From IMG/VR virus record IMGVR_UViG_3300022934_000025, positions 1 through 55,753 of that record: a stretch of DNA of 55,753 nt. The stretch is one strand, 5' to 3'. This stretch comes from a virus. Taxonomy: Duplodnaviria; Caudoviricetes. Made by a program: the position numbers and the translations under genes. Below the pieces are notes generated by a model. That model searched no databases. It was given only the letters and a program-made list of their open reading frames with translations, and was not told the origin of the DNA. This document shows, piece after piece, positions 15,755-55,753 of this stretch (positions are counted from its first letter, which is position 1; each line of letters begins with the position of its first letter).

Positions 15755-18700
15755 TAAAATAACCCCGCTTGTTTAGCACCTGCCGCTGCCGACAAGCCTG
15801 CTACACCCAAGCCTAAGATAGACTGGGCTGGTGATACACTTCCGCCAGATGCTTGGGTAACGCCCATCTGACTAGACGGCGCACCCTTATAAATGTCGGA
15901 GAGGAAGCCCACACGTTGGTAAGGCTCGTACATCTGCTCGACTTGCGTCTTACGTTCTGCTTCAAGAACCGCTTGATCTTGTGCTTGCTGTTGCTTACCA
16001 ACATCGAACAAGAAGCCTGCTTCTTTCTGACCCAAGTTTTGTTGCAGTTCGCCAAGAGCGCCCTGACGTAGGCCAAGCTGGCTAAGAGCGTCACCTTGTT
16101 GCAATGCAAGCTGACCGTATTGAGTACCAAGAGAACCAAGTCCCTCGCCCAAACGACCTTGTAGCTCTGATCCTTGCAAGCCAAGAGCGCCCGCCTGTTG
16201 AGAACCCTGCATAGCCATCTGAGCTTGGCCTTGACCAAGCTGACCAGATTGACTTGCCAATTGTCCTGCAAGCTGTTCGGCAGATATACCAAGTTGTGCA
16301 GCTTGACGTGCGATGTCGGCTTGTTGGCCGACGCCTTGCATGGCTAACGCACCCGTTTGCTGGTTCAATTGACCCGCTAACTGCGCTTGATTCATGCCTG
16401 TCTGGGCTGCAAGTTGTTGTAAATTCATTCCGGTGTTGGCCAAAGCTTGAGCGTTTGCAGAAGCCATTTGTTCTGCACTCATCCCTAGCTGTCCTGCTTG
16501 CTGCAACGCTGCTAGACCAAGCTGACCACCTTGTTGTGCAGCCTGTTGCTGCATTTGAGCGGCACTCATACCCAGACCAGCGGCTTGTCCAGCCAACTGA
16601 CCTTGTAGTTGAGACGCACTCATACCTAATTGTCCAGCCAATTGCTCTGCCGAAATACCGGTTTGAGCTTGTTGCTGGGCCGTCTGCGCGGCTAATTGCT
16701 CTGCGCTTAATCCTAGCTGACCGGCCTGTTGAGCGGTCTGGGCTAGAAGTTGTTGTGCAGACATACCAGTCTGGGCTTGCTGCCCGATCAAACGACCAGC
16801 CAATTCTTCTGCACTCATGCCCATCTGAGCCGCTTGACCCGCGAGTTGACCTTGCAATTGAGCAGAGGAGATGCCCAATTGTCCGGCCAACTGTTCTGCG
16901 GATTGACCTAATTGCCCTGCTTGCGCCAAGTTCGAAGCAGCTAATTGCTCCGCGGACAAAGCTTGTTGTCCCGCACTCAGTGAACCTTGCTGGGCCATTT
17001 GCTCTGCGGAAAGCCCTAGCTGTCCTGCTTGCGCCAGATTTGAAGCAGCTAATTGCTCCGCCGACAATCCAAGCTGTCCTGCTTGGTTGAAAGCAGACAA
17101 CCCTAACTGACCACCTTGTAATGCGCCTTGCTGGGCTAGTTGTTCTGCGGACATTCCCGTCTGAGCCGCTAACTGCTCTGCGGAAAGTCCTAGTTGTCCT
17201 TGTTGTTGCGCGGTCCGTGCAGCGAGTTCTTCTGCCGACAAACCAAGTTGTCCGGCAGCTTGTGCTGCTTGCATTCCGGCTTGCGAACCTTGAGCGCCCA
17301 ATGCCCCAGTAAGCTGTGCAGCCTGTTGCGCACGAGCTTGTTGAGATTCAAATGCTTGTTGTGCCCGTTGAGCCGCGCTTTCGAAGCCTTGCTGACGCAT
17401 ACCTGCGGCAGTTCTGGCCTGTTGTTCTAAGATATTTCTGCCTAATTCTTGTTCGGCAACAGCTTGTCTTGAGCCACCAAACGCTCCGGCGCTTACCGCT
17501 TGTGCGGCTAATTGATCGCCTTGAATTTGACCCGCTCTAGCGATGTCTTGCAAAGCTTGCTGAACCGCAGCATCTTCATACTGGTTCATAAATGCGCCAG
17601 ATGAAGCGGGGTCAAATCCGCCAGTCGTACCGGCCAAACCTGCAATACCTTGCTGGGCCGTCTGTGTTCCTAACGCACCCGCCGCTTGTAAGGCTTGAGC
17701 GGCATCACCTGTGATACCCCTAGCGCCGGAAATCGCGGCTTGAGTCTGTTGTGCAGCTTGTTGCGCTGCCGTTTGTCCGCCTGTTCTAGCTTGACCTGCA
17801 ACGTTTCGAGCCGCTTGCGCAATATCATCAACTCCGCCAATAGCTCTTTCATAAGCACCTAACCCACCAGCGGCAGCCGTTTGAGCCGCGGTCCGCGCTG
17901 CGCCACTTACGCCGCCTAAACCTTGGCCAGTCTGTTGTGCGGCTAACCGTGCTGCGGCAGTAGCGTCCGCTACACCAGCACCTGTTTGTTGTGCAGCTAA
18001 TCGTGCAGCATCACTTACACCACCCAATCCTTGAGCAGTGCCAGCGGCACCCATTCTTGCACCGAGACCAGCTTGAGAAGCAGCATCTGCGCCCGCCAAA
18101 CCTGCGGCGGCTAACGCTTGCTGGCCACCTGCGGCCTGCGCTCTGGCAGCATCAATTGCGCCTTGAGTCGCGGTCCCTGCCTCTTGAGCAGCTTGTAACG
18201 CGCCAATACCAGCTTGTTGTAATCCTGTTCCTGCACCCTGAACAGCACCTCGTGCAGCTTGAATAGCTGCGGCAGTGTCCGTTCCGGCTTGTTGTGCCGC
18301 GGCCCGCGCTCCGGTGCCCGCTTCTGTAGCAAAAGCTTGGCCTTGACCGGCAGCCGTGCCTAAATCGGCTTGTCCCGTGGCTGCGGCTTGTTGAGCAGCT
18401 AACGTAGCAGCATCCAAACCAGCTTGTGTGGTGTCCGCTTGCGTCAGGGCACCTTGTCCAAGATTGGCGGCAAGGTTTCGTGCAGCGGTATCTGCCGTGG
18501 CTAACCCTGTGCCAAGAGCATCTACACGCCCTGTAGCCGCGGCATCTTGAGCGGCTTGCGCAGCAATAAGATTTGCAGCCTGATTACCGGCAGCAACATC
18601 TTGTACTACGCCGGGAATGTTTGCAGCGGCAGTACCTAACGCTTGTTGACCACCGCCAGCGGCAGTTCTAGCACCAACAGCGGCAGTATCTAGTGCGCCT

Positions 18701-38906: not shown

Positions 38907-40910
38907 TTAGCCGCCGCCAGCGAGTGACCCAATGCCTCCTTGAGTTTCAGGTCTGCGGAAAGGATTGTCAGATACGGGCATTGTTTGTTGTGCCCCTGTC
39001 AAACCGTAAGAACTTGCGGATCGAACGTTCACTGGACCCGGTGCCGGTGCTGGACCACCCGTATTGTCCAAATCGCCTACAGGACCGACCGGGATAACGG
39101 AGTAACCGCCTTGTCCATCTGGAACAGTTCCTGACGGAATGCTACCAAAAGCACCCATACCAGCGTTTTGCCCAAACGGATTAAACCCTAGTAGATCAAC
39201 ATTAATACCACCGGGGTTACTTGCAAGATATTGATCTAACGCAGCTTGTTGTTCTGGCGTAAGTCCTGTGTTTGTCGGGTTAGTTGGAATAGGCGTTCCG
39301 GGCTCCAGATCACCATACTCGGCTAATTGACCGTCGGTTAAAAACTCTCCCGCAGGCGTCACATAATCTTCTGGATTAAAGCTGCCCATAAAATCAGAAG
39401 GCGAAGTACCTTGCGCTTCATTTATAGCACTTTGAGGCAAACCCGCGGGTTGCTGACCGGGTGTATATACACCTGTTTCAGGTTCCACAAACCCTCCAGC
39501 ATCCTGACCTAAACTGACCAGATCATCCAAAGTCAGGCCCCTACCAGTAGGTAGGCTTGGCGCTGGTTCTGGCGTGGGTTCCGGTGTTGGTCCGGGCGGT
39601 GTTGGTCCGGGCATTGTTGGCATTTCAAAATCGAAGCCTTCTCCGGGTAAACCGGTGAGGTCCAACGTGCTAAGGTCAAAAGAGCTACCGTCCGGTAAGG
39701 AAATAGTGTTTTCTGCTTCGACAACATCCCTACGGCCACCAAGAGATGCCATTTGCTCTGGTGTTGGAGCTACGGGTTCCCCAAGGTTTGGCAAAGCGGC
39801 TTGACCACGCCCCGGACCCTCAAGGTTTAATGTTGTTTGAGGCGGACCTGAAGGAGCAACAAACTCTTCTACCATAGGAAATTGATCGGCTAATGTCTCA
39901 ATACCTGATGTATCAATGTTTTGGAGAGCAGCAGCAATTTCAGGAGCGGGCTCCGGTGCTGGTTGCATTACCGGTGGCGGAACTTCCACAGGGGGAGGTG
40001 CCACGGGTCCAACTGTCCCACGTGAAAGAATATCTTCCGGAAGAGTAAAGTCCGCAGGTAAATCTATTGGTTCAGGCGTCATTACTGGGGGTGCCACAGG
40101 CTCTGGCGTAGGCTCTGGACCCGGTAAAACACCTTGAAAAGAACCCGGTGCCATAGGGGTTGGGACACCGGGCTGGCTAGGTGCCAAGGGAATAGGTGGT
40201 GCTACAGGCTCTGGTGTGGGCTGCATAACAGGCGGTGGAACCTCCACGGGTGGGGGTGCTACAGGCCCGACTGTTCCACGTGAAACAATGTCGTCTGGTG
40301 GAGCAGGTAAGTTAATCGGTGGTGGCACCTGTACCGGAGGTGGTAATTCATTGACCGGCGGAGCAGGTGGTAAAGGTGCCGCAACTGGGGGAGGCGGTGG
40401 AGGTGGAGGCGGCAATATCGGCTCAGGTACTGGCTGCGGTACTGGCGTAGGAATAGAAAATACAGGCTCTGGCGTAGGAGCAGGCATCGGCATCGGTTCC
40501 GGTACTTGCGGCATCGGTGCAGGCATGGGCGGCTCTGGAATTGGCAGAGGCGCAGGTTGTGGCACGGGCACTGGCGCAGGTACTTGAGGTACTGGCGCAG
40601 GCATAGGAATCTGCGGCTCCATTGGCGGCATAGGAATTGGTGGCACACCGGGGTTCGCAATAATCGGGCCAGATTCACCGGGTAAAGGCAGCGGCGGCTG
40701 CTTGATAGGAACCTTAACAGGCTCTGCTCTAGGAGGTTTTACAGGCAAGGGAGGCTGCTTGATAGGTACTTTAACAGGCTCTGCTCTAGGGGGTTTCACT
40801 GGTGCAGGCTGAACCGCGGGTGGAGGAGAAACCCCAACAGGAACTGGTGTAGGAAACTTAATGTCGAGCGGTAAGCCTCCGGGTGGCATAAATCTTGTAA
40901 AATCAACCAT
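38907..40910 (-). CDS. Proline-rich, probably disordered 667-aa protein
   Basis: Very Pro-rich, internal duplications, C-terminal GGIGSL; TGATG coupling. Confidence 0.75.
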   Translation of the reverse strand: MVDFTRFMPPGGLPLDIKFPTPVPVGVSPPPAVQPAPVKPPRAEPVKVPIKQPPLPVKPPRAEPVKVPIKQPPLPLPGESGPIIANPGVPPIPMPPMEPQIPMPAPVPQVPAPVPVPQPAPLPIPEPPMPAPMPQVPEPMPMPAPTPEPVFSIPTPVPQPVPEPILPPPPPPPPPVAAPLPPAPPVNELPPPVQVPPPINLPAPPDDIVSRGTVGPVAPPPVEVPPPVMQPTPEPVAPPIPLAPSQPGVPTPMAPGSFQGVLPGPEPTPEPVAPPVMTPEPIDLPADFTLPEDILSRGTVGPVAPPPVEVPPPVMQPAPEPAPEIAAALQNIDTSGIETLADQFPMVEEFVAPSGPPQTTLNLEGPGRGQAALPNLGEPVAPTPEQMASLGGRRDVVEAENTISLPDGSSFDLSTLDLTGLPGEGFDFEMPTMPGPTPPGPTPEPTPEPAPSLPTGRGLTLDDLVSLGQDAGGFVEPETGVYTPGQQPAGLPQSAINEAQGTSPSDFMGSFNPEDYVTPAGEFLTDGQLAEYGDLEPGTPIPTNPTNTGLTPEQQAALDQYLASNPGGINVDLLGFNPFGQNAGMGAFGSIPSGTVPDGQGGYSVIPVGPVGDLDNTGGPAPAPGPVNVRSASSYGLTGAQQTMPVSDNPFRRPETQGGIGSLAGGG
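40272..40287. promoter_or_regulatory. parS: parS-consensus site (intragenic)
   Basis: TGTTCCACGTGAAACA. Confidence 0.7.
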
Positions 40911-41334: not shown

Positions 41335-43770
41335 CTAACCTCCTTGGTTTTTAAGTAGCTCACGCTGCATTGCAGCGTCGATACGTGCTTGCGTCTGACG
41401 CTCTTGCGAAGCCAATCGCTGGTCAAACTGCGCACTACGCATCTGTTGGTTCTGTGCATCCAACTGTACTTTAGCTTGGTCAATCGCTTGATCGGCCTGA
41501 TCGGCTTGAGCCCGAATCTGAAGCTCTTGCTCTTTAAGCTGTACCAACGGATCAGGCGCACCAGCACCCGACAACTGGCCAGACAGTTCTTTCACTTGCT
41601 GCAAGCCTTCTGCTACAAACTGCGCGGTCAAACGCTCAATCTCTAGCATCTCGTCATCACTAGCAGGCTGACCACCTTTTTGCTGCATCTGTTGTAGATA
41701 AGCAACAGCGGCCTGTTCTTTAGCAGCAATCTGGACGTGTTCCATAACGTGCTTTTGCAAAGACATAGCAACCGGAGGCAAGCCGCCAACCATAGGCGAC
41801 GAACCGAATACCAAGTGCGCTTGTATGTGCGCTTGGTGGTTTTGTCCCTCAAAAGCATGAAGCTCTAACATATCCAACGCGTTGATATTTTCTTGCGCGG
41901 GGTCGAGAGGCACGGGCTCCTCATCAGGAACCGACTTCATAATACGATCAACGTCAGTCACACCCAACGCTTCATACATATCTCTAAACACTTCAGCTAA
42001 ATTGTGAAGCTCTGGAGCCTGCGTCGCTAATTGAAGCTTAGTCTGTGCCAGCATAATACGTTGTGCTTGGCTAAATACATTTGGATTACTAACAGGTACG
42101 ACATCAACACGATCATCAAAGTCGCTCTGCATAATTTTTTTGTCACCACCAGCAACCGTATACGGGTATTGCTGTGGCAAACTCTCTGACATCACACGTG
42201 CCAGAATCTTAAACTCTTGGCGCATTGCATAATGCAACCGCTTATGTACAGCACTCATCACACGAGTGCCTTGCTCCATCATTGCTATGGTTGTACCAAC
42301 AGGAGCTTGTTGATTCCCATCACCTACCTTGAGGTCCGTGATCGTCGCAAAACGCTGACCGGCCTGCACCACAAAACCCAATAGATTGAACAATGTTTGA
42401 TCGGGCCCCTTAAACGGCAGCGGCATGAGGCTATCGCGAATAGCCCCACCCGGAGCGTCCACGTCGCGGAACTCACCGGGCTGCAAAGGATCGTCATCAT
42501 CCCTGATCCGTAGTCCACGGGCCTTGAAACCCGCAGGGAGATTGGACAACGTACCAGCGTCGATCAACTGTCGCAGTGCCGCCGTGGCGGTCCTCGATAG
42601 ACCACCAATCGTATGAATCAGACCTAGCCCATAGAAACCAAAACCGGGTAGGAATTTGAAATGCGTGAAGTATTGTATCTTCTTGCGTAGCTCGTCATCT
42701 TCGCGGTAATTACGGCGAATCGACAGTATCTGTCCGTTGTCTTCTGAAATTGTGACAATGTAAGGAATTTTAATGCCGGTAGGCTCACCGTCACTATCCA
42801 TGTCCTCATAACCTTCTAGGTCAAGATCAACATGGCATTCCAAAATTGTGCAGTCGTAATCAATCTGATTAGGTTCCAGACCCTCAATGCGGTCCATCTC
42901 ACCATCTAAATCAGACATTTCTTTCTGTGCAGGAATCACCTCAACGTCTAGGTAAGTGCCTGCAATCTGCCTCTTACGCAAATCGTTGAGCGACATGCGC
43001 ACAACCTGCGTAATGTTAGGACATGTTTCGAGGTCCGCGGTCTCATAAGGAACAACCAAGTTCTCCGCAGGGACAAACTTGGATACCGCACGGCCTAGCG
43101 TTTCATCGTAATACGTCTTCTTAAACGTAGAGCCCGCCAGCGGGAGATAAAACAACATCTGATCCATGTCAGGCGTGTATTCTTCCATCACATTCGTGAT
43201 GTAGTAGTTCATGAACTGACGAACACGAGCCGCTTGCTGCGTCTTAGATACCGTGTCCTTACCCATTACTACGGTGCGCACGGGCCCCGAAGCAGGTAAC
43301 AATTCATTAAAAGCTTGTGCTTGGAACTGCGTTGCAGCTTCTGCAAGCAGCGGATGCGTTACTCCGGAGGCTCCACGGAAAGGCTGAGTACGCTCATCGT
43401 AAGTAAAGCCCAAAAGCTCCAAACCGTTAGTGTAAGCATCTTCCCATTCTTGTCGGCTTGCTTTGTTAGCATCAAACTCACCAATCAAGTCGCTCGAAAT
43501 ACGAGCCAACTCACGATCAGGAATCTCTTCAGCTAGGTTTGCATAAAAATCGTCGCTGGTGCCGCGCTGATCCTGCGGATCAAAGTCGATTACAACACCA
43601 CCATCATCTTCGGGCTTGATCTCAATGGAACCAACGTCAGTCGCCTCAATGTCTGCCATCACAACATTCGAACTATCTGGCAACTCAAGCTCAACTTCAG
43701 CCGCTAATTCATCATTGTCTAACTGCGATGGTACATCCATCAATCCTGCATTTGGTTTACCATTTGCCAT
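41335..43770 (-). CDS. Portal protein
   Basis: 811 aa; PFRGASGVTHPLL, GFYGLGLIH, LRQLIDAGTLSNLP, SAVHKRLH. Confidence 0.92.
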   Translation of the reverse strand: MANGKPNAGLMDVPSQLDNDELAAEVELELPDSSNVVMADIEATDVGSIEIKPEDDGGVVIDFDPQDQRGTSDDFYANLAEEIPDRELARISSDLIGEFDANKASRQEWEDAYTNGLELLGFTYDERTQPFRGASGVTHPLLAEAATQFQAQAFNELLPASGPVRTVVMGKDTVSKTQQAARVRQFMNYYITNVMEEYTPDMDQMLFYLPLAGSTFKKTYYDETLGRAVSKFVPAENLVVPYETADLETCPNITQVVRMSLNDLRKRQIAGTYLDVEVIPAQKEMSDLDGEMDRIEGLEPNQIDYDCTILECHVDLDLEGYEDMDSDGEPTGIKIPYIVTISEDNGQILSIRRNYREDDELRKKIQYFTHFKFLPGFGFYGLGLIHTIGGLSRTATAALRQLIDAGTLSNLPAGFKARGLRIRDDDDPLQPGEFRDVDAPGGAIRDSLMPLPFKGPDQTLFNLLGFVVQAGQRFATITDLKVGDGNQQAPVGTTIAMMEQGTRVMSAVHKRLHYAMRQEFKILARVMSESLPQQYPYTVAGGDKKIMQSDFDDRVDVVPVSNPNVFSQAQRIMLAQTKLQLATQAPELHNLAEVFRDMYEALGVTDVDRIMKSVPDEEPVPLDPAQENINALDMLELHAFEGQNHQAHIQAHLVFGSSPMVGGLPPVAMSLQKHVMEHVQIAAKEQAAVAYLQQMQQKGGQPASDDEMLEIERLTAQFVAEGLQQVKELSGQLSGAGAPDPLVQLKEQELQIRAQADQADQAIDQAKVQLDAQNQQMRSAQFDQRLASQERQTQARIDAAMQRELLKNQGG

Positions 43771-43778
43771 TGCCGCTC

Positions 43779-44507
43779 CTAATGATCCGCAATAAAGTAA
43801 CCATAAGAGTCACGAGGGAAATAAAGGTCCATGCCCTTCTCCCCACTCTCAAACCTGCGTTCATTTGCTGGTCGGTTCATAATTGCTTCTAATTGCTGGA
43901 ATATCTTTGCGTCAACCATTTTCGCTAACTGTGCAGGTGTTGCATTAATCCCAGCTTGTTTAAATATACTAACGCCCACTGCGTTATTACGCTTATCCAT
44001 AGCACGATGTAAGCGATTTGAGAAACCTATATCTTCTCCAAGGTTCCCAACAGTCATCGCGGTCTCTGGTCCGTAGTCCGCGGCTACTAAAGCAGTACCC
44101 AAGGCATGTCCACGGGCATCCGCTAGTTCTTGAGGCGTAGGCATGTCCTGTCTAGGTCTGCCAAAACGATTCTCCCCTTCAATGGGGTCTTGAACCAACG
44201 GATAACCGTACTCGCTTGAAAGCGTTTCGAAAAAGGTGTCACCTTCCGGATAGTATGTTTCGCGGGCCGCGGAGCCCGGATTGCCAGACGCTCTTATCTC
44301 TGATTGTTTATCAGCGTCGAACCTAGCTCCCTCCGGCGGATCGGCAAACGGCGTGTATTGTTCTGCAAAAAATGCTGCTACACCGCGTTCGTCAAAATCT
44401 TGCTCTTGAGCAGGGCTTGTAGTATCTTGTAAAACTACAGTAGCGCCCCCGTCCTCAAAGTAGGACACGAATCCGCCCGCTCCAAGATTTACCGCAGGAC
44501 TATTCAT
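43779..44507 (-). CDS. DUF6973/SAA-like helical domain protein
   Basis: DARGHALG...MDKRNNAVG motif pair. Confidence 0.6.
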   Translation of the reverse strand: MNSPAVNLGAGGFVSYFEDGGATVVLQDTTSPAQEQDFDERGVAAFFAEQYTPFADPPEGARFDADKQSEIRASGNPGSAARETYYPEGDTFFETLSSEYGYPLVQDPIEGENRFGRPRQDMPTPQELADARGHALGTALVAADYGPETAMTVGNLGEDIGFSNRLHRAMDKRNNAVGVSIFKQAGINATPAQLAKMVDAKIFQQLEAIMNRPANERRFESGEKGMDLYFPRDSYGYFIADH

Positions 44508-44530
44508 TAGGCCGCCTTTCCATAAAAAAG

Positions 44531-45994
44531 TTAATAATACGCTTTCACTTTAACATGGTTTTCGTCATCTTCCCAGTCATCAGTTGGTAGCTGTACAAAA
44601 TTACCCTGCCTATATCGCATAAGTGCTTGCGTCATACTATCAACTAAGTCGTCATGCTCACCATTAGGAAAAGCCGCCACTTCTTCAATTAACTCGTCTG
44701 AAAAAGTTTCGTCGGGGGCCCAAACCATCCCTGCTTCAAACAATGGCGAGACACTATGTACTCGACTCACCTTATCGTTACCTCGACTCGGTGTAAAGTT
44801 AACAACGGGTATGCCCATGTTCCGTAATTCGTGCGTCAATGGCATACCGCTTGCTTTAGCCTCCACGATTACCGTGTCAGGCTCCCAAAACTTATAATTC
44901 TCAAGCGCAACTTGTTTTAACTCAGGGAAATCCCAGCGCCCTTTTTTGCTGTCAAGCAAAATCAAATTAGGACCCGATCCACCCTCGTTAGGATAAAATA
45001 CGCCCCACGTCGTTATCGCAGAATAGTCCGACGTTTCTCTTTTACTAAAAGCCGTATCGTAGCTCTGAATCACATATTCTAGCTGGGGGACCCTATCGCG
45101 ATCCCAACAGCGCCACCACTCGCGCTTAATAATCGCGTTCTCTTCACCCGTAGGATTTTGTTGATACTGCGCGTTCCACTTGGACGGAGGAATAGATGCG
45201 CGGACCGCGGTCAAATCGTCAAGAGACCAAAATTCTGGCCAGCACGGAGTCCCATCTTCAAAAATAGCGGGCAACTCCACAACTTCCCATTGATCGGCAA
45301 GCGGGTCTTTGGCCATCGCTTTCAATAATTGACCCGTCATGTCCTTCTCAGACCAACGTGTTTGAACCAAAACGATGCTGCCACCGGGCTGCAAACGCTG
45401 ACGAGGACCACCCGTGTACCAATCCCAAGCATCATCAAACCCAGAACTCGACATAGCCGTCTGCTCCGAGTGCGGGTCGTCAATGATTACCAAGTCACCT
45501 CCACGACCAGCCAAGTTACTGCCAACGCCAACAGCGTAATACATACCACCTTTGTTCGTGTCCCAACGACCAGACGCCTTACTATCCGCAGCAAGTTTCA
45601 CCTCCGGAAATATCTCTTTGAAATCATCACTCTCAATCAGGTTCTTGGTCTTCCTACCAAAATTCACAGCAAGTTCTGTCGTGTGCGTCGCCTGAATGAT
45701 CTTCTTGTTCGGCATACGGCCCATGAACCACGCAGGGAACAGATAGGACGCAAATTCGGACTTCGTGTGACGCGGTGCCATATTAATTATGAGCCGCTTC
45801 AATTCGCCCGTGGCTACCCGTTCAAGCTTTTCTGCAATGATCCGGTGATGACGGCCCGCGATGAACTCTGGCCAAACAGTTTTCACGAAAGTTAGAAAAT
45901 CATTTTGGCACTTTTCGTTCTTTTCAAGCTGCGCAAGCCGAAGCTCAAGCTTCAGTTTTTTCTCTTCTAGCAATGTATTTTGCGCTGCACTCAT
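44531..45994 (-). CDS. terL: Terminase large subunit
   Basis: APRHTKS (Walker A variant), IIDDP, YQQNP, SYDTAF, HDDLVDS. Confidence 0.95.
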   Translation of the reverse strand: MSAAQNTLLEEKKLKLELRLAQLEKNEKCQNDFLTFVKTVWPEFIAGRHHRIIAEKLERVATGELKRLIINMAPRHTKSEFASYLFPAWFMGRMPNKKIIQATHTTELAVNFGRKTKNLIESDDFKEIFPEVKLAADSKASGRWDTNKGGMYYAVGVGSNLAGRGGDLVIIDDPHSEQTAMSSSGFDDAWDWYTGGPRQRLQPGGSIVLVQTRWSEKDMTGQLLKAMAKDPLADQWEVVELPAIFEDGTPCWPEFWSLDDLTAVRASIPPSKWNAQYQQNPTGEENAIIKREWWRCWDRDRVPQLEYVIQSYDTAFSKRETSDYSAITTWGVFYPNEGGSGPNLILLDSKKGRWDFPELKQVALENYKFWEPDTVIVEAKASGMPLTHELRNMGIPVVNFTPSRGNDKVSRVHSVSPLFEAGMVWAPDETFSDELIEEVAAFPNGEHDDLVDSMTQALMRYRQGNFVQLPTDDWEDDENHVKVKAYY

Positions 45995-46031
45995 AGGGGT
46001 CCCTAGCTAATTTTTCACACGCAGTTTTCAA

Positions 46032-46047
46032 TGTTCCACGTGGAACA
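46032..46047. promoter_or_regulatory. parS: parS-consensus palindrome 1 of tandem pair
   Basis: TGTTCCACGTGGAACA. Confidence 0.85.
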
Positions 46048-46055
46048 TTTCACGT

Positions 46056-46071
46056 TGTTTCACGTGAAACA
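46056..46071. promoter_or_regulatory. parS: parS-consensus palindrome 2 of tandem pair
   Basis: TGTTTCACGTGAAACA, exact canonical consensus. Confidence 0.87.
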
Positions 46072-46079
46072 TAGCACCA

Positions 46080-46108
46080 ATTATATGCGATTTTAAGCAC
46101 AAATATAA
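46080..46108 (-). promoter_or_regulatory. Putative promoter of terL/late operon
   Basis: Perfect TATAAT (46085-46080) preceded by ATCGCA box; poor -35. Confidence 0.5.
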
Positions 46109-46179
46109 GACAGTTAATTCTGGTTCGAAATAACTGGTGATTATTTGCGAAAAACATGGCTCAAGCCCCCGCTTCGTAA

Positions 46180-46530
46180 ACACGGGGCCGTGCGCGGTGG
46201 ATCGCGGTTTTTGGCTCCCGCTCCGTGCCATTTGACCCGATACGCTGGGGCCCCTGCCGACGGTTCGCGGCGCTTGGACCATGACCCGCGGCGCTTGGTC
46301 CAGCGGCCATGGCCGCGGATAACTGGCAGCGGCTGGGGTGCATCGTCCGCGGTTTAATTTTCACGGGCTGGGGTTCGGGGTTCGGGGATCGCGCAGCGCG
46401 GCCCGCTGCCGACGGCCTGCCGCCCGCTAACTTTTGCCAACTGGGCACGGCCTGCGGCCATGGGATCGCGGCCCGTAGGTTTTGGGAAGGGAGCGCGGGG
46501 CGGGGCCCGCCTTGTTTAACTGGGAAACAC
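46180..46530. repeat. GC-rich non-coding tract with recurrent CGCGG units
   Basis: Multiple CGCGG; tandem CGCGGCGCTTGG[A/T]CCA; no credible ORF. Confidence 0.55.
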
Positions 46531-46537
46531 TAGGCAC

Positions 46538-46565
46538 AAAAAAAGGCCCGCACGGGGCGGGCCTT
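46538..46565 (-). terminator. Terminator at end of early region
   Basis: AAGGCCCGC stem plus T-run. Confidence 0.85.
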
Positions 46566-46583
46566 CGGTTTGCTGGGGACGGT

Positions 46584-46985
46584 TTAGACGTTGATCGACA
46601 AATCCAGTTCGATGTTCGAATAGTCGACTTCAACGGATATATCCCCGTCGCGGATCATATCTTTGACGGTTTCGCGGATTTTGTCGTCGGTCGCGTCGTC
46701 GGTCTCGTCTTCGCGATCTGCTAGCGTTCGGTCGATATGCTGCCCGATGCGGTCGCGCATCAAATCAAAAAGAACATCCGCCAACTGCTGGCGCTGTTCG
46801 GCGGCGGCTTGTATCTCCGCGCTCATTTTCTGGATGTTCAGTTCCAATCGCTCCGCGTATTCCTGCAAGTTTTTATGATCCAACGCGGCGGCTTTCAAAT
46901 CCGATCCGGTCGCGTCGCGTCCGTCTTGGATATGATCGGCGGCTAATTGGTCCAGATATTCGACGTTCGTTTTAAGTTCAATCAT
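46584..46985 (-). CDS. Early hypothetical coiled-coil protein
   Basis: 133 aa; own promoter, GGAG RBS and terminator. Confidence 0.78.
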   Translation of the reverse strand: MIELKTNVEYLDQLAADHIQDGRDATGSDLKAAALDHKNLQEYAERLELNIQKMSAEIQAAAEQRQQLADVLFDLMRDRIGQHIDRTLADREDETDDATDDKIRETVKDMIRDGDISVEVDYSNIELDLSINV

Positions 46986-47038
46986 GGTTCAGTTTCTCCG
47001 TTGTTAAAGTTGCGACGGCTTGCCCGCCGTCGTATGCG

Positions 47039-47068
47039 ATTATATGCGCTAACTTTTCAAAAAGTAAA
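47039..47068 (-). promoter_or_regulatory. Early promoter
   Basis: TTTACT-18-TATAAT; near-duplicate of 47581-47610. Confidence 0.75.
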
Positions 47069-47073
47069 CCCGC

Positions 47074-47099
47074 AAAAAAAAGGCCGCCCGAAGGCGGCC
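47074..47099 (-). terminator. Terminator
   Basis: GGCCGCC-TTCG-GGCGGCC-T8. Confidence 0.9.
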
Positions 47100-47118
47100 C
47101 GATGCGGCGCGGTTGCGC

Positions 47119-47532
47119 CTAGTCAAATCTGGCGATTTTGGTTTGACGGGTTGCGCGGTCGCGTATGGCGGTAATCCCGTATTCATATACGAAACACTCG
47201 AAACCCTCAAAGATGAAACGCGCCAGCGGTGCCAGTGCTGGATCGTCGTCGTGTTCGCTTTGGTATGTCCCGTTGTGATCGTCAACGGTCCCGCTGAATG
47301 GATAACAAAAGCCGCCAAATTGATAAGCGTCATCCATGCCCGCCGCGATATTGTCCAGCGTCAACGGGTCCGCCGTCATGCAAGCTTGGCAGAAAAAGTC
47401 GGGAATGATCCCGCAAGCTTCCGCCAATTGTGCAGGCGTTGCCCCGCCTAGCTGTTTATCCTGCGCAGGATTGAAAACCCGATCCAGTAATAAGTCGGAC
47501 GGGCGCACATTTAAAGTTCTAACGTTTTCCAT
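47119..47532 (-). CDS. Early hypothetical protein
   Basis: 137 aa; VYEYGITAI...ARFD; cassette with promoter and terminator. Confidence 0.78.
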   Translation of the reverse strand: MENVRTLNVRPSDLLLDRVFNPAQDKQLGGATPAQLAEACGIIPDFFCQACMTADPLTLDNIAAGMDDAYQFGGFCYPFSGTVDDHNGTYQSEHDDDPALAPLARFIFEGFECFVYEYGITAIRDRATRQTKIARFD

Positions 47533-47580
47533 GGTTTTTTACTCCGTAGTAATGCGGCGCTTTATTGCCCCGCGTATGTG

Positions 47581-47610
47581 ATTATATGCGATAACTTTTG
47601 AAAAAGTAAA
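47581..47610 (-). promoter_or_regulatory. Early promoter
   Basis: TTTACT-18-TATAAT. Confidence 0.75.
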
Positions 47611-47618
47611 GTAGAAAC

Positions 47619-47645
47619 AAAAAGGCCCGCACATTGGCGGGCCTT
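47619..47645 (-). terminator. Terminator
   Basis: AAGGCCCGC stem plus T-run; near-identical to 46538-46565. Confidence 0.82.
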
Positions 47646-47666
47646 CGGTTTGCGTTGTCGCTGGTT

Positions 47667-48857
47667 TTATGCGGCGACTTTATCCAGTAACGCGCCCGCC
47701 TTTCGTTCGATTTCAATGCGGGCATCTTGGTGCGGTATGTCCCGCGCAATTGCGGTAATAGCCTGCGCCGCGTCCCAAACTGTTTCAACGGGTCGGCCTT
47801 CTTCTTTTAAATGCCTAGCGTTCGCGGCCTTGGCCATGCGGCCAGATAATCCCGCCCGCTTACTTAGGAAATCAAAACGGCTTTCATCATCGTGCGCAAT
47901 CTTGGCGGCCTTGGCAGCTTGGACGCCTTCAATAAATGTAGACGTTGCACCATGCGCGAAGCTTTCCAAAGCTGGCCGCGCTTCCATCGCGAAACGATCG
48001 GGCGCGAATTTGGTATGCCTAATCTTAATTTCTTGGAAGTTTTCCACGCCCCAAAGATTTCGATTCATACAAACCCCGCGCAGATACATCGCGGCGATGC
48101 CTGCGGTTTTGCTGCCCGTTTCACTGTTCCATGCGTAAAAGCCGCGGAACATCAAATCGGGTTCGCCGTTCGGCAGCTTACCGACTTCGATAGGGTTGCG
48201 GTCGTCAACTAGGAAAACGAAAACGTCGCGGTCGCTGGCGAATAGCGTGGTCGTTTCCATTGTTACTGGCACGTCGGGATCGTAAACGGCTAAACCGTCG
48301 CGGCTTCCCGTCATCATGCCCGGCACTTTCCAACGTCCGCCGCTGGCGTCAACTAGGTTTTTCACTGGTTCCAAAATTTCCCAGTCAAAAATTCGCCCGT
48401 AGTCTGGACCCGTTGCGGCGCGTAAATCCCCGCCGTCGGTTTGGCTACCGTATACCTTGACCAGTTCCCGCCCGCGGTTATAGCGCAAACCCCATTGAAT
48501 ACAGTCCGCCGCCAATGGTGCAGGCAAGTCGCGCAGGTAACCAGCGGGTGCGCCAGATAGCTGGGACAATTGGCCAAAACTCCAATTGGTCGGGGTGTTC
48601 ACGTGGTCGCGGTAATTGTCGTCTTGGTATTCAACGCGCAAATCCCCGCGGCTGGGGTTGCTTTCATCCAGTTCGCCAATGATCTGGATTTTGTGAGTAT
48701 CAACGGTGCGGCTTGTCATCCGCTGGGCGTCAATCTTTTTTGTGGCCAGCATATCATCCAGCGTCAAAAACTTTTGATCGTCGGGACGGCTGAACCATTG
48801 TGATGAAACCGCGCTATTTCCAATGCCATGCGCGAAGGCGTTAGTTGTATAAGTCAT
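47667..48857 (-). CDS. DUF932-family protein
   Basis: WSFGQL, RAATGPDYGRI, NSETG, YLRGVCMNR, KIRH. Confidence 0.8.
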   Translation of the reverse strand: MTYTTNAFAHGIGNSAVSSQWFSRPDDQKFLTLDDMLATKKIDAQRMTSRTVDTHKIQIIGELDESNPSRGDLRVEYQDDNYRDHVNTPTNWSFGQLSQLSGAPAGYLRDLPAPLAADCIQWGLRYNRGRELVKVYGSQTDGGDLRAATGPDYGRIFDWEILEPVKNLVDASGGRWKVPGMMTGSRDGLAVYDPDVPVTMETTTLFASDRDVFVFLVDDRNPIEVGKLPNGEPDLMFRGFYAWNSETGSKTAGIAAMYLRGVCMNRNLWGVENFQEIKIRHTKFAPDRFAMEARPALESFAHGATSTFIEGVQAAKAAKIAHDDESRFDFLSKRAGLSGRMAKAANARHLKEEGRPVETVWDAAQAITAIARDIPHQDARIEIERKAGALLDKVAA

Positions 48858-50290: not shown

Positions 50291-50770
50291 CTATGGGATT
50301 GTATGCGATGTTGTGGGACTAATCAAGCCAAAAACTTTTTGCCAGTCAAGTGCACCAGCTGCGTGATAATGCGCGGGGACCTTCAACCCTTCCAGCTTCA
50401 GATCAACAGCGTCCGCTCCGCGGTATAAAAAAATTTGCTCAGGTTGATTTTTGGTTTTGTGTTTTTTAACCAAGACCCAAACGCTGGCGTGACCATGATT
50501 GGTTAGCCAAGCCACTTGGTGAGGCCGTAGGTCCACCGCATTACCTGCGGTCGCTTTCAGTTCAATAAAATGAAACTGACCAAACTCGTCACACAAAACA
50601 ACATCGGGCACACCGGGCATCGCCCACGTTTCAAGCCTAGTCGCTTTCAGATTCCTGCCAGTCTTCTCCATCCCCGTTTTCATCTGCCTCCAAAAGTCGG
50701 CTTCTCGCTTTGTCGCGGTTCTGGGGATTGCTCTCTCCTTCGGGAGTAACGTCGATAGTGATCGGGGCAT
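50291..50770 (-). CDS. VRR-NUC / PD-(D/E)xK nuclease (Holliday junction resolvase-like)
   Basis: PGVPD, FIELK, LRPHQVAW; start uncertain. Confidence 0.82.
   Translation of the reverse strand: MPRSLSTLLPKERAIPRTATKREADFWRQMKTGMEKTGRNLKATRLETWAMPGVPDVVLCDEFGQFHFIELKATAGNAVDLRPHQVAWLTNHGHASVWVLVKKHKTKNQPEQIFLYRGADAVDLKLEGLKVPAHYHAAGALDWQKVFGLISPTTSHTIP
50298..50326 (-). promoter_or_regulatory. Early promoter inside the 3' end of the nuclease gene
   Basis: TTGATT-17-TACAAT with three phased ATC[GC]CATA-like boxes. Confidence 0.72.
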
Positions 50771-51254
50771 AACTTTGTTTAATCTCCTTGAGCGCCCTCA
50801 ACACTTCATCCTTGCTCATACTGTCAATGCTGCCAGTGCGGATTTCGCTCTTGTTTACATAAATGTCACCTTGCGCTTGCCCGCGCCTGTATTCTGCCTG
50901 AACGGCTGCGCTGTATGCGCCGTTGTTTAATGCCATGTCGCGGATGACCTGAAGGTCCCGCAAATGGCGTTGGTAGTTCACACCAAACTTTTCATCCAGT
51001 TCTGCACGATAAGCTTGGATCGCTGCCACAACATGAGGGCTGATGTTTGGGTTGGTTAGTTCATACGCTCTGGTGTGAGCAGACCCTGCGGGATAGCCAG
51101 CATTGATTGCTGCCTCTCGCATTGTGATCTGACCATCCTTCGATACCAGTTCTTTAACAAACAGTTCTTGCTTTCGCGTTAGCTGCTGGGCTTTGGTTGC
51201 CTTGGGTCGTCCTACCCTTTTCTTTGGGGCAGGAGCTACTGATTTACTTGGCAT
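50637..51254 (-). CDS. terS: Terminase small subunit
   Basis: LTRKQELFVKEL...REAAINAGYPAGSAHTRAYEL HTH typical of TerS. Confidence 0.8.
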   Translation of the reverse strand: MPSKSVAPAPKKRVGRPKATKAQQLTRKQELFVKELVSKDGQITMREAAINAGYPAGSAHTRAYELTNPNISPHVVAAIQAYRAELDEKFGVNYQRHLRDLQVIRDMALNNGAYSAAVQAEYRRGQAQGDIYVNKSEIRTGSIDSMSKDEVLRALKEIKQSYAPITIDVTPEGESNPQNRDKARSRLLEADENGDGEDWQESESD

Positions 51255-51710: not shown

Positions 51711-52025
51711 CTACTCAGTGTAGACTTCATACCATTCGTCTTCCCCGTCTTTCGCTTTGTGCGTTATGACATGTGGATCGAATGGAAACCCGTAGCTATG
51801 TCCGACGCGGCCTTGGATGGAGTCACGCATTGCGTGACACTCCGCAGCTAAAAGGTCGGTATAACCATATCGGCAAAGATTGAAACCGATGTAAGCCCCA
51901 CCGTCAAAGTAGTCTTGCTTACGTTTCGATTCGAGTCCGTCGGGAAACTTCTCTTTGATGAATCTTTCGATGTCTTCAAGATTGTTAATGACGACCTTGC
52001 CGTCCTTGAGTTCAAAGTCACTCAT
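51711..52025 (-). CDS. Early hypothetical protein (104 aa)
   Basis: Start MSDFELK after AACTACGGAGG leader. Confidence 0.75.
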   Translation of the reverse strand: MSDFELKDGKVVINNLEDIERFIKEKFPDGLESKRKQDYFDGGAYIGFNLCRYGYTDLLAAECHAMRDSIQGRVGHSYGFPFDPHVITHKAKDGEDEWYEVYTE

Positions 52026-52107
52026 GGTGAACCTCCGTAGTTTTTCAATTGTTAAAGAACGTGGGGCTTGCCCGCCCCGCCAACTGGAACTCCCAGTTGG
52101 TAAAAAT

Positions 52108-52136
52108 AGTTTACCACGGGTATGCGATAATGTCAA
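52108..52136 (-). promoter_or_regulatory. Strong sigma70 promoter
   Basis: TTGACA-17-TAAACT with extended TG. Confidence 0.85.
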
Positions 52137-52194
52137 GTCCAATAATGAAGGGAAAGTGGAGAGGTGGTGGAAATCCACTTAATTTTTTAGAAAG

Positions 52195-52500
52195 TTATAT
52201 CGTCGCGGATGGGTGAACGGCGAAGTAGTCCATTCGGTCGTCCCATTGGAAGGTATGTTCTTGCCACTTGGCTGCTTCTTCAGCAAGGCGGTCTTCGATG
52301 GCGGGTGATGAGGTCCACGCCTTGAGGTTCATCTTCAGACTCCACTTAAACTCGTCGGCTTTCTCTTTCCAGTAGTTGGCTTCGTGCGTTCGGCCTTCCC
52401 AGTCGTCTTCCTCTGCCCAAAAGGAGCAGAGGTCGAAGCAAGCCTGATCGCTCAGTGAGCCGTCTCTCATGCGCAGGATCGCGGGCCGTTTACCGTTCAT
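52195..52500 (-). CDS. Hypothetical Trp-rich protein
   Basis: 101 aa, ATGA coupled. Confidence 0.68.
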   Translation of the reverse strand: MNGKRPAILRMRDGSLSDQACFDLCSFWAEEDDWEGRTHEANYWKEKADEFKWSLKMNLKAWTSSPAIEDRLAEEAAKWQEHTFQWDDRMDYFAVHPSATI

Positions 52501-52715
52501 AGCCTGTCCTCGTATTCTTCAACGGATGGGACGGCACCTTCTTCGTCGTCCACTTCTGCATGGATCAAGGCAATGACGTAGGTCGGGTTGATCTGGACGA
52601 TCTTGCCGTTGTCGAGCTTTAGCTCAATCATGTCTTTGCCCCACTTCCATGATGTGACGCTGTAGTTAAGTTGCGTCCCGACGGACGGGTGCATATCAAT
52701 GGTTAGTATTTTCAT
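52497..52715 (-). CDS. Hypothetical protein (72 aa)
   Basis: GAGGA RBS before MKILT. Confidence 0.68.
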   Translation of the reverse strand: MKILTIDMHPSVGTQLNYSVTSWKWGKDMIELKLDNGKIVQINPTYVIALIHAEVDDEEGAVPSVEEYEDRL

Positions 52716-53016
52716 CACGTTCCTCCTCTGCGATGTAGACACGCTTCATTGGTTTAGTGCGAAAGAACCCTTTGTAGTCTGGGTACTCGTGCATGAACAA
52801 CCGAGCGTAAAGCGCAATGAAGTCGTTAGAGATTTTGTATTCGTTACCGGTGGTTACGATCATCGTTTCCCACCGAATCCTGTTGACGATAAGCCATGCT
52901 GAAAGTCTACGGTGCCCTTTCTGGATAGCTTGAAAGGTGAACTTTTTAAATAGCTCATAGAACTCTGGGTTCTCTTTGTGCCACGCCCACCATTTATCTT
53001 TGAGATCGTCTGTCAT
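52696..53016 (-). CDS. Conserved phage protein
   Basis: WHKENP...NRIRWE...YKISNDFIALYARLF...FFRT motif. Confidence 0.75.
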   Translation of the reverse strand: MTDDLKDKWWAWHKENPEFYELFKKFTFQAIQKGHRRLSAWLIVNRIRWETMIVTTGNEYKISNDFIALYARLFMHEYPDYKGFFRTKPMKRVYIAEEERDENTNH

Positions 53017-53351
53017 CCAAATAACGCGAACGCGATAGCTGCAAGGAATCCGCCAACAGCGGCTTGCAGGATGAACTTATGCTTGACGTACCATGGCTCG
53101 TGGTCCGCGTCCCAATGCGCGTCAGTCTCTTCGTAGGTGACATCGACTGCGGTTCGTTCGGCGTTGTTTTTAAAGCACCAAGCTAGGATAGCGCCGCGTT
53201 CCCAACGGTTAACCATCTTTGGCCCGCGGGTCGCGGTGGTTGGAACTTTGACGGGGGATGGAAATTCACCCACCTTTACCTTTCGGTAAACGGTGGGCTT
53301 GCTGACCTGCGCGAGGTCGCACACTTCTTCGATGGTAATCAAATCTTTCAT
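53013..53351 (-). CDS. AlpA-like HTH DNA-binding protein with C-terminal hydrophobic helix
   Basis: LITIEEVCDLAQVSKPTVYRKVKVGEFPSPVK...NRW. Confidence 0.82.
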   Translation of the reverse strand: MKDLITIEEVCDLAQVSKPTVYRKVKVGEFPSPVKVPTTATRGPKMVNRWERGAILAWCFKNNAERTAVDVTYEETDAHWDADHEPWYVKHKFILQAAVGGFLAAIAFALFG

Positions 53352-53379
53352 AACGTTCTCCATGTAGACTTACATAGAG

Positions 53380-54166: not shown

Positions 54167-55753
54167 CTATTTAGCTTCGCCCCATGAAGGTCCGATCTCG
54201 ACATCGCACTTACTGGGTACTTCAAGGGGGACAGCATCCTCCATGACCTTAGCGATTTCATGCGCTTCGTCAACACTTTTAACGGACATGGCTATTTCAT
54301 CGTGGATTTGAATCATGGGCAGCTTGCCCATCTTGTAGAGGTCCACCATCGCTTTTTTCGTCATATCCGCGGCAGATGCTTGGATTAAACGATTGAGCGC
54401 CTTATAGGTGTAGGCTCGTTTGAGACGGGTCGTGGGCCCATATTCGTCAACCGCTTCCCGGTAAGGCAGCGCCTTGTTCATGGCAAAGGTATCGGGCTCC
54501 CACAGATCGAAGCGACACTTACGGCCAAGCAGCGAGTGCAGCGAACCGCCCGACGATTTCTCGTTCAGTCGGTTCATGACGCCCGTCATCAGTCCTTTCA
54601 CAAACGGTACGCGGTCATGGTATTGCTTGGTTAGGCTTTTTGCTTCTTCGACCGACAGGTCCAGTTGCTCAGACAGTTTGTTCACACCCATGCCATACAT
54701 CATGCCAAGGTTAATTGTCTTAGCTTGCTTCCGCGGAATGTTAGCCATCTCCGCAACCATCGTATGGAAGTCAGTGTCCGGATCATCGTTGTATGCGTTG
54801 ACAAACTCCTTGGCTCCCTCCAGTTGAACGCCTCGCATTTTTCCGTATACATGCGCATAATGGACCAAGATGCGCGGTTCCTGTTGCGAGAAGTCAATGG
54901 CCGCCCACTGTTCACCTTCCTCTGGTAGGAACAACGAACGAATCATTGGTCCCAGTTCAGGGTCGCGGGCCGGGATTTGCTGTAGGTTAGGATTAGACAT
55001 GGAGATACGGCCCGATACGGTGCCTCCATCGTCAGAGCGGATTTGATTGATATGGGAGTGTATTCGACCATCAGCGTGGCAGTGCTTCATGATTGTATTG
55101 ATGAAGGTGCCGGATGTCTTGTTCAGGTTCCTAGCTTGGGTGACGAGTTGCGCGAGTGGATGCTCATGCTCTTGGAGGAAGAGTTTGGTGAACGACGGTG
55201 CGCCCTTTTCAGTGCGTGGATAGTTGACTCCGACTTTATCGAACGCTTTAGCGAGAGACTGTGCAGCCCAGATTTCGACATCCGTGCCGCTGATGCGCTT
55301 AATCTCCTTGAGGACTTCCCGTTCTCGCTTGAGCAAACCATCCCGCGTTCGCTCGACCTTATCCGTATCTACCCGGACACCCCGCATGGTCATATCGACC
55401 AGACATGGGAGGAGATCAAGTTCGAGATTGGCGATAGGCCACAAGCCTTCTTTGCCAAGTTGAACGGAGAAGTAATTCCAGAGTTCGAGGGTAAGTTCAG
55501 CATCACCCTCCGCATACGGTCCAACGTACATGGCGGGCATCTTCCACATCTCTGCTTTCGGATCGACTCCGAACTCCCGCGCCGCTTCCACTAGACCTTT
55601 CTCCGACTTAACTTTTCCCAAGTGGTCGTAAGCTAGTGAGTTCAGGCTGTAGCTAAATCTGTTTTCATCAAGCAGTGATGCGATGACCATGGTGTCTATG
55701 ATGCGGCCTTTGACATCGAAGCCCATGGCTTTGATCCAGCCCAAGTCATACTG
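54167..55753 (-). CDS. polA: DNA polymerase family A, 3' part (polymerase domain)
   Basis: SGRISMSNPNLQQIP, DFSQQEPR (motif A), RKQAKTINLGMMYG (B), IHDE (C). Confidence 0.96.
   Translation of the reverse strand, partial: QYDLGWIKAMGFDVKGRIIDTMVIASLLDENRFSYSLNSLAYDHLGKVKSEKGLVEAAREFGVDPKAEMWKMPAMYVGPYAEGDAELTLELWNYFSVQLGKEGLWPIANLELDLLPCLVDMTMRGVRVDTDKVERTRDGLLKREREVLKEIKRISGTDVEIWAAQSLAKAFDKVGVNYPRTEKGAPSFTKLFLQEHEHPLAQLVTQARNLNKTSGTFINTIMKHCHADGRIHSHINQIRSDDGGTVSGRISMSNPNLQQIPARDPELGPMIRSLFLPEEGEQWAAIDFSQQEPRILVHYAHVYGKMRGVQLEGAKEFVNAYNDDPDTDFHTMVAEMANIPRKQAKTINLGMMYGMGVNKLSEQLDLSVEEAKSLTKQYHDRVPFVKGLMTGVMNRLNEKSSGGSLHSLLGRKCRFDLWEPDTFAMNKALPYREAVDEYGPTTRLKRAYTYKALNRLIQASAADMTKKAMVDLYKMGKLPMIQIHDEIAMSVKSVDEAHEIAKVMEDAVPLEVPSKCDVEIGPSWGEAK
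55569..55753. repeat. Terminal overlap repeat (copy 2)
   Basis: Matches 1-185 with 3 substitutions. Confidence 0.97.

Follow-up and report, generated by a model that had tools for sequence, protein, structure and literature searches.

Canonical parS Sites Without a Cognate parA-parB Ahead of the Terminase Gene in a Marine Podophage and Its Uncultured Relatives

The virus genome analyzed here (IMG/VR record IMGVR_UViG_3300022934_000025; 55,753 nt, the whole of which is referred to as "the window") carries two perfect 16-bp parS sites in tandem in the leader of its large terminase gene (terL), and a third inside a coding sequence. By sequence these 16-mers are canonical chromosomal-type parS, far beyond chance, and they are orphans in that the cognate parA-parB is missing from the same replicon. 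From the comparisons presented below, they are probably centromere sites of the host type that are recognized by the chromosomal ParB (Spo0J family) of the host. In bacteria, chromosomal parS (tGTTNCACGTGAAACa) and ParB (Spo0J) constitute a centromere, at which ParB is loaded as a CTP-dependent clamp and to which ParA and SMC are recruited. Virulent phages with host-type parS and without ParA or ParB are an already known kind, of which phi29 is the example; what is new is the marine podophage clade, the tandem placement where the late operon begins, the clade-wide conservation with repeated gain or loss, and a hint that orphan parS is frequent in viral contigs.

Genome Organization

The window is a complete or near-complete virus record (CheckV completeness 99). 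Its DNA polymerase gene is split over the two ends (1-518 and 54167-55753), which makes the record a circularly permuted assembly and not a genome with mapped ends. Nearly all genes lie on the minus strand, where terL is the first gene of a long packaging and structural block that continues downstream with structural and lysis genes and GroES (Table 1). Upstream of terL is a hypervariable block (46584-48857 and 51711-53363), the replication and structural genes being shared with relatives; in the records of nine relatives, nothing corresponding to the ORFs at 46584-48857 and 51711-53016 was found. Many of the relatives' contigs end at the hypervariable border, within a few hundred bases of the parS region. 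ARAGORN found no tRNA in the window, and a megablast search with 44000-48000 against cultured phages gave no match.

Six-frame HMM searches of the whole window for ParB_N, HTH_ParB, AAA_31, and CbiA returned no matches at E ≤ 10, nor did Phage_integrase under the same settings; run on 14 reference genomes as controls, these searches gave matches in 11 to 14. Pfam analysis of 45 ORFs (17 families) revealed no ParA, ParB, recombinase, or RNA polymerase, and the Pfam and PHROG matches, with 25 of 56 families covered in one listing, include neither a recombinase nor a repressor module. ParB_N is also missing from all ten whole records of relatives. The original prediction had recognized no ParA or ParB gene, and the searches with their positive controls bear this out; it had also called the phage lytic, which fits the annotation and the missing integrase and stands at the level of annotation. 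Two small HTH proteins (HTH_17 and HTH_26) are encoded in the window, where many core genes are unannotated; 53013..53363 encodes a weak excisionase-like HTH with no lysogeny module around it.

Table 1. Coordinates of the features discussed, in window positions
Feature	Position	Strand	Remarks
Degenerate parS copy TGTCCCACGTGAAAGA	40014..40029		two mismatches; in the sister copy of a 97-nt coding repeat
parS site 3 TGTTCCACGTGAAACA	40272..40287		within CDS 38907..40910(-); other strand reads TGTTTCACGTGGAACA, the phi29 form
Portal	41335..43770	-	
terL, large terminase	44531..45994	-	phrog_38, E 1.4e-112; Terminase_6C
GGGACCCC palindrome, ribosome-binding region	45996..46003	-	immediately 5′ of the ATG
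parS site 1 TGTTCCACGTGGAACA	46032..46047		perfect palindrome; member of the pair closer to the ribosome-binding site
Spacer TTTCACGT	46048..46055		8 nt; reads ACGTGAAA on the terL strand
parS site 2 TGTTTCACGTGAAACA	46056..46071		perfect palindrome; promoter-proximal member of the pair
Changes in the run X2 variant	46029, 46030, 46048, 46050-46053, 46055, 46078, 46079		
TATAAT hexamer (plus strand ATTATA), alternative -10	46080..46085	-	missing from some relatives
Start-region element CGCATA	46084-46089	-	conserved; directly after the promoter
Sigma-70-like promoter TTAACT-16 nt-TAAAAT	46090..46117	-	9/12 consensus matches
G+C-rich stretch	46140..46530		no conserved ORF; ends in the 20-mer AGCCATGTTTTTCGCAAATA
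Intrinsic-terminator-like hairpin and T-run	46542..46566	-	closes the upstream transcription unit
TerS, small terminase	50637..51254		phrog_51; 4.6 kb upstream of terL

Sequence of the parS Sites

The two tandem sites are 24 bp apart, centre to centre, and lie, as had been claimed, between the TATAAT hexamer at 46080-46085 and the terL ATG at 45994. The window 16-mers match the chromosomal parS consensus TGTTNCACGTGNAACA, whose free positions take T/C and A/G. In the window and its relatives the free positions are filled as T..A, C..G, or C..A only, and these are the natural parS variants. There are three exact matches in the window, whereas none of 100 dinucleotide-preserving shuffles contains any (mean 0.00). 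When up to two mismatches are allowed the window has four matches against 0.29 expected, a number reached in none of the 100 shuffles. The claim that three canonical sites are present for reasons other than chance is thereby confirmed.

The third site is an exact match situated in one copy of the 97-nt coding repeat, where it specifies DDIVSRGT; the sister copy encodes EDILSRGT. Site 3 is missing from the whole records of ten relatives even with one mismatch allowed, from which it follows that it is peculiar to the window. Site 3 may be a selected third parS or a by-product of coding, and the coding repeat may partly explain it. The 667-residue product of CDS 38907..40910(-) is rich in proline, glycine, and alanine and contains the repeats D-I-V/L-S-R-G-T-V-G-P-V-A-P-P-P; it matches no family, and among nine relatives only a short match was found, in G008. 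The GC skew is locally inverted (+0.21) in this region.

Promoter and Leader of terL

On the terL strand the promoter is followed by CGCATATAAT, and in relatives the promoter region is kept as TTAACTGTCTTATA...ATCGCATA. The TATAAT box of the original prediction is present; its conservation fails in some relatives, and the TAAAAT promoter lies upstream of it. With either -10, both tandem sites fall within the first ~50 transcribed bases of the terL leader. A CGCATAtAAT-like motif also precedes the minus-strand genes at 47039, 47581, 50298, and 53380. The possibility that TTAACTGTCTTATA is a repeated phage promoter was rejected, as it is not enriched (seven matches versus 3.8 expected) and occurs in exact form only at terL.

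The leader folds modestly better than shuffled sequences (z -2.09). The palindrome in the ribosome-binding region is conserved in relatives as AGGGnCCCC, often TAGGGGCCCCTA, which is unusual for a Shine-Dalgarno region. The G+C-rich stretch was considered as a structured RNA and discarded (z 0.74 versus shuffles; no Rfam family above threshold); the best Rfam match upstream of terL is Leu_leader, with 24.4 bits against a cutoff of 50, and lies over the terminator. A 20-mer, GGCCATGTTTCTCNCAAATA (in the window AGCCATGTTTTTCGCAAATA, 46142-46161, minus strand), is kept in nearly all relatives (L004-L083), with or without parS, ~60-80 nt upstream of the terL promoter and always at the downstream edge of the G+C-rich stretch. 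The window has a single copy of this 20-mer where 0.02 would be expected, and it may be an origin, a packaging signal, or the site of a regulator.

Conservation in Related Phages

Relatives were taken from IMG/VR as the best 80 of at least 600 stretches; they are uncultured, with TerL proteins 84-95% identical. Three of the 80 were left out as the sequence upstream of terL was too short, leaving 77 evaluable. The original prediction had proposed scanning related phages for parS near terL, and the scan is positive: 45 of these 77, from the best 80 of at least 600, possess a perfect parS upstream of terL, and ten of the 45 have two. A one-mismatch site is found at this place in three more (L037, L039, and L040), and 29 of the 77 have no site upstream of terL with one mismatch or fewer, the near-miss in L045 being downstream. 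With 32 of the 77 (same best 80) thus having no perfect site, the element is dispensable, and a strict operator role is not essential. In the whole records of ten relatives, searched with up to one mismatch, sites are present in seven, solely at the terL-upstream locus, and three are without.

The perfect sites with full flanks, window included, number 56 and represent 41 distinct 56-nt contexts (best 80 of at least 600). The form is TGTTTCACGTGAAACA in 31 of these contexts and TGTTCCACGTGGAACA in ten, and the free positions are never filled otherwise; over the 41, nothing varies but positions 5/12, paired as T:A or C:G. The flanking columns, by comparison, carry 1.28 bits or less each. These contexts show strong selection on the 16-mer. 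Close relatives swap the order of the two parS variants. The spacer, described originally as a half-site, has that form in the window; relatives have five different spacers instead, each 7 to 8 nt long (e.g., ACGCGAA, TCCAATAT, TCGCAAAT, and TCGTGAT), unrelated to it, and the half-site is therefore not a conserved feature.

When mapped on the TerL tree, parS presence and absence requires at least 11 changes, four of them forced by well-supported branches. Shuffled labels give a mean of 24 changes, and 11 or fewer in none of 500 shuffles, a comparison in which the upstream region may recombine separately from TerL.

Position Relative to the Promoter

In 27 of the 45 relatives with a perfect site (best 80 of at least 600), the first site begins 0-37 nt after a CGCATA-type element; nine relatives have a distance of 0-2 nt, and fourteen one of 12 nt. 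Measured on the transcript, this corresponds to ~+1 to +13, a classical place for a block. Approximately 16 others (L043, L058-L063, L066, L068-L070, L073-L075, L079, and L080) have the site upstream of a TTAACTG/TTCACTG...GCATAT promoter in the context ...GATATGA-parS-TTGCCTAAT..., a class assigned by reading of the sequences, of which a regular expression for the promoter caught two. In four of the latter a gene is inserted and parS is ~1.06 kb from terL. Two site-bearing relatives fit neither class. A second conserved palindrome, TGCCTAATnATTAGGCA, directly follows parS in L043, L058-L063, L066, L074, and L075; it is not found in the window.

The constant feature is the non-coding boundary between the hypervariable early/replication region and the packaging/structural block, whereas the operator geometry varies. 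Since the position of the site relative to the promoter is not fixed, a pure operator model is weakened.

Independent Assemblies and a Strain Variant

Twenty sequencing runs contain the region 45400-46700; they belong to 13 studies, whose samples were salt-marsh, marine, aquatic, and sponge material. Contigs that extend from the terL start through both sites to the promoter were recovered from four runs of four studies (records 10, 16, 27, and 4). A co-occurring variant in run X2 shows ten changes within 46029-46079 (Table 1) and none in the 32 parS positions, even though six of the eight spacer bases are altered. Together, the variant and the bridging contigs rule out a chimera and show purifying selection at the strain level. 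Read-level confirmation that the region is not chimeric with host DNA had been proposed as a check in the original prediction; independent contigs bridge the region and its flanks are phage-specific, which settles this point in its favor.

Recognition of the Sites

One critical question is whether the sites are read by a phage product or by the host. A comparison of window genes with nine relatives' records, three of them lacking parS and the power accordingly low, found no phage gene that tracks parS. TerS is 71-85% identical in relatives with the site and without it. The HTH gene at 53013..53363 has a weak counterpart in one of the six parS-bearing records compared, and the genes common to all relatives are also present in those without a site at one mismatch. 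In relatives without parS no substitute palindrome was found, and the promoter runs straight into the ribosome-binding region. A perfect 16-mer in 45 of 77 relatives, combined with no co-occurring phage gene, favors a host factor of fixed specificity; a reader of invariant specificity that is not encoded by the phage fits host ParB.

An operator for some other dimeric DNA-binding protein, of phage or host, whose palindrome merely coincides with parS, is quite improbable. Placement 0-37 nt past the start-region element in 27 of the 45 site-bearing relatives (best 80 of at least 600) is typical of a repressor, and the HTH_17 and HTH_26 proteins and the many unannotated core genes of the window would be in keeping with one. 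However, the coincidence would have to extend to 14 fixed bases and to the natural variants of the two free positions, most site-bearing relatives have no counterparts of the window's HTH genes, the universally conserved genes are equally present where the site is not, and site-less relatives show no alternative palindrome in its place. Even smaller is the probability we would give to chance or to a host-DNA assembly chimera, which is practically nil: no exact site arose in 100 shuffles, the arrangement is seen again in dozens of contigs assembled from various metagenomes, and contigs of four runs and four studies bridge the region with phage-specific flanks. The shuffles, the relatives' contigs, and the bridging contigs together refute it.

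Two further roles for the 16-mers are both very unlikely. RNA hairpins formed by the 5′ leader of terL, acting on stability, processing, or translation, would be consistent with the transcription of the sites in the window and in 27 of 45 site-bearing relatives (best 80 of at least 600), and with the z score of the leader (-2.09); yet hairpins would be expected to show loop and compensatory stem changes, and over 41 contexts only the 5/12 pair varies. Moreover, a third of the sites fall outside the leader, the site being upstream of the promoter or ~1 kb away in ~16 relatives, and the identical 16-mer is found elsewhere in unrelated phages, within genes in phi29. A packaging signal (pac/cos) recognized by the small terminase draws on the adjacency to terL, on the many relatives' contigs that end within a few hundred bases, and on the five parS between terS and terL in an unrelated phage (L179). 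Against it, TerS identity is the same 71-85% whether the site is present or absent, 32 of the 77 relatives (best 80 of at least 600) must package without it, and the contig ends coincide with the border of the hypervariable region as well.

Comparison With Known Systems

The closest parallel is Bacillus phage phi29. A passage in PMC2731898, citing Meijer et al. 2005, describes five parS sites for host Spo0J in phi29 and exploitation of the segregation machinery for entrapment in the spore, and a passage in PMC9437464 likewise mentions its use of host segregation. In the phi29 record we find four perfect TGTTTCACGTGGAACA sites, at 10445, 15903, 17243, and 18760, and, with up to three mismatches, ten matches versus 1.33 expected. 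No ParA or ParB is annotated, and three of the four sites are within genes. Like the window phage by its annotation, phi29 is virulent; both lack ParA and ParB and have several perfect host-type parS, some of them in genes; the novelty originally claimed for orphan parS in a lytic phage was thus overstated, since phi29 already has the same sites. The two differ in that phi29 is a 19-kb protein-primed Bacillus phage and the window a 56-kb marine phage related to HTVC023P. The role in phi29 is tied to sporulation and Spo0A boxes, a link that the window phage probably does not share. The tandem pair of the window is at the terL promoter and leader, whereas the phi29 site at 17243 is just after the packaging ATPase gene. 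The literature searched contains no report of host-type parS in phages beyond the phi29 family, and the genome paper on HTVC023P-type phages (PMC9599517) mentions neither parS nor ParB.

The window shares with the chromosomal centromere the same 16-bp sequence, the same natural variants, and copies clustered within a few kb; the centromere, however, lies in the origin region, whereas the replicon here is a phage without a parAB operon. The plasmid-prophages P1 (parABS) and N15 (sopAB) possess their own ParA and ParB and their own distinct centromere sequences. They too are phage genomes with centromere-like sites, but the window encodes neither protein. KorB of plasmid RK2 is a ParB-family CTP clamp that, bound at OB, acts as a repressor from promoter-proximal and distal sites. 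This layout resembles that of the relatives, whose sites are in the start region, at ~-80, or ~1 kb from the promoter; RK2, however, encodes KorB and KorA, its OB differs, and no such genes exist in the window, such that the likeness is one of layout only. CtrA boxes in promoters of phages of Alphaproteobacteria are associated with "lytic deferment" in a passage of PMC9437464. These phages and the window are alike in being virulent and in having promoters with sites, putative ones in the window, for a host cell-cycle protein. CtrA, in contrast, is a transcription factor with another motif, and ParB is primarily a segregation protein.

Proposed Role of Host ParB

Binding and loading of host ParB at the window sites is likely, judging from the match to parS and its conservation. 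The original prediction that the phage exploits host ParB is partly supported, by canonical sites beyond chance, no phage ParA or ParB, a non-chimeric assembly, and conservation in 45 of 77 relatives; the consequences that it attached to binding are proposals. Host ParB would load at the 16-mers as CTP-dependent clamps, and the phage DNA would acquire a partition-type nucleoprotein complex at the entrance to the late (packaging and structural) operon. Once loaded at parS, ParB clamps slide over kilobases of DNA; from a nucleation point anywhere in the boundary they would thus cover both the late promoter and terL. Chromosomal ParB usually has a mild effect on nearby transcription.

Given binding, it is a reasonable possibility that the phage genome, unintegrated, is carried along by the ParABS and SMC systems of the host and thereby positioned or inherited when infections of slow-growing hosts are long or deferred. 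This would be a non-sporulating counterpart of the spore entrapment of phi29. About as probable is that ParB bound at ~+1 to +50 of the terL transcript damps the late promoter while the phage copy number is low. Titration of ParB that disturbs host segregation or division is an unlikely outcome. What probability remains under binding falls to other effects, and all of these consequences are compatible with one another.

A broader proposal, of which we are rather doubtful, is that orphan host-type parS is a widespread and repeatedly acquired device of virulent phages, with ParB, in this abundant marine clade, partitioning a dormant genome to the daughter cells of slow-growing hosts and restraining its late genes. 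ParB would later be out-titrated as the phage replicates, or displaced by late transcription; the result would be a plasmid-like carrier state within "lytic" ocean phages. Should ParB load, a universal segregation protein would be a host factor exploited by phages well past Bacillus sporulation. ParB loading would also provide a concrete, testable mechanism for the persistence of unintegrated phages in slow-growing marine bacteria (pseudolysogeny and carrier states), and a testable late-gene timer operating by titration of a host protein. Natural parS tags would, if ParB loads, permit phage genomes to be tracked in cells with ParB fusions, and the 16-mer would be a sequence marker predicting phages of ParABS-bearing hosts.

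Orphan parS in Other Viral Contigs

A scan of IMG/VR for exact parS returned at least 119 stretches, of which 80 loci were examined, some of them possibly plasmids or host fragments. Ten of the 80, among at least 119 matches, belong to the TerL family of the window (56-90% identity). Outside this family, at 70 loci, the free positions are canonical (T/C and A/G) in 86 of 90 sites, against 25% by chance, and 11 of these loci have two or more sites (again among at least 119 matches). The ParB_N test covered 40 of the 70 non-family records, the first by listing order with canonical free positions; one of the 40 was positive, and none of the nine with at least 90% completeness (among at least 119 matches). 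These counts hint that orphan parS may be commoner in viral DNA than the single textbook example.

Arrays of three to five perfect parS in records without ParB_N were seen in L179, L147, L158, and L177 (6637-6894). In L179 (2657-3444), an unrelated phage, five sites stand between terS and terL; in L147 (6545-6594 and 9223-9589) and L158 (5525-5566), records of 12-18 kb, tandem sites are beside terminase or major-head genes. The unrelated array-bearing contigs may include phi29-like small phages.

Hosts and Cultured Relatives

Close relatives fall into MAG bins of widely differing taxonomy, including Verrucomicrobiota (several), Rhodobacteraceae, Halieaceae, Maricaulis, and others, the binning of phages being unreliable. 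With the same reservation, all five bins tested encode ParB, and four of the five contain exact parS, which in G013 is found solely on the phage contig. By TerL, the nearest cultured phages are 023Pt_psg01 and HTVC027P (62.6%), DSL-LC04 (58.1%), and HTVC023P (55.2%). These nearest cultured relatives infect Pelagibacter, a non-sporulating lineage, and the hosts of the window phage and its clade are most likely non-sporulating.

No convincing parS was found in three of these four cultured phages. Pelagibacter phage HTVC027P (MN698241.1) possesses CGTTTCACGTGAAACA at 16412-16427, a match of 15 in 16 with a perfect 14-bp core, located in the gap that separates the convergent genes gp31 and gp32, with terL ~4 kb downstream and no obvious promoter nearby. 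HTVC027P is a possible experimental system. Two runs from 2025, X19 and X20, which bear an organism code and not a metagenome label, contain 24-33% of the sampled words; X19 contigs are 95-99% alike and span terL, parS, and the promoter, with 46192-46411 uncovered. These runs are a possible lead to a culture with a relative of the window phage.
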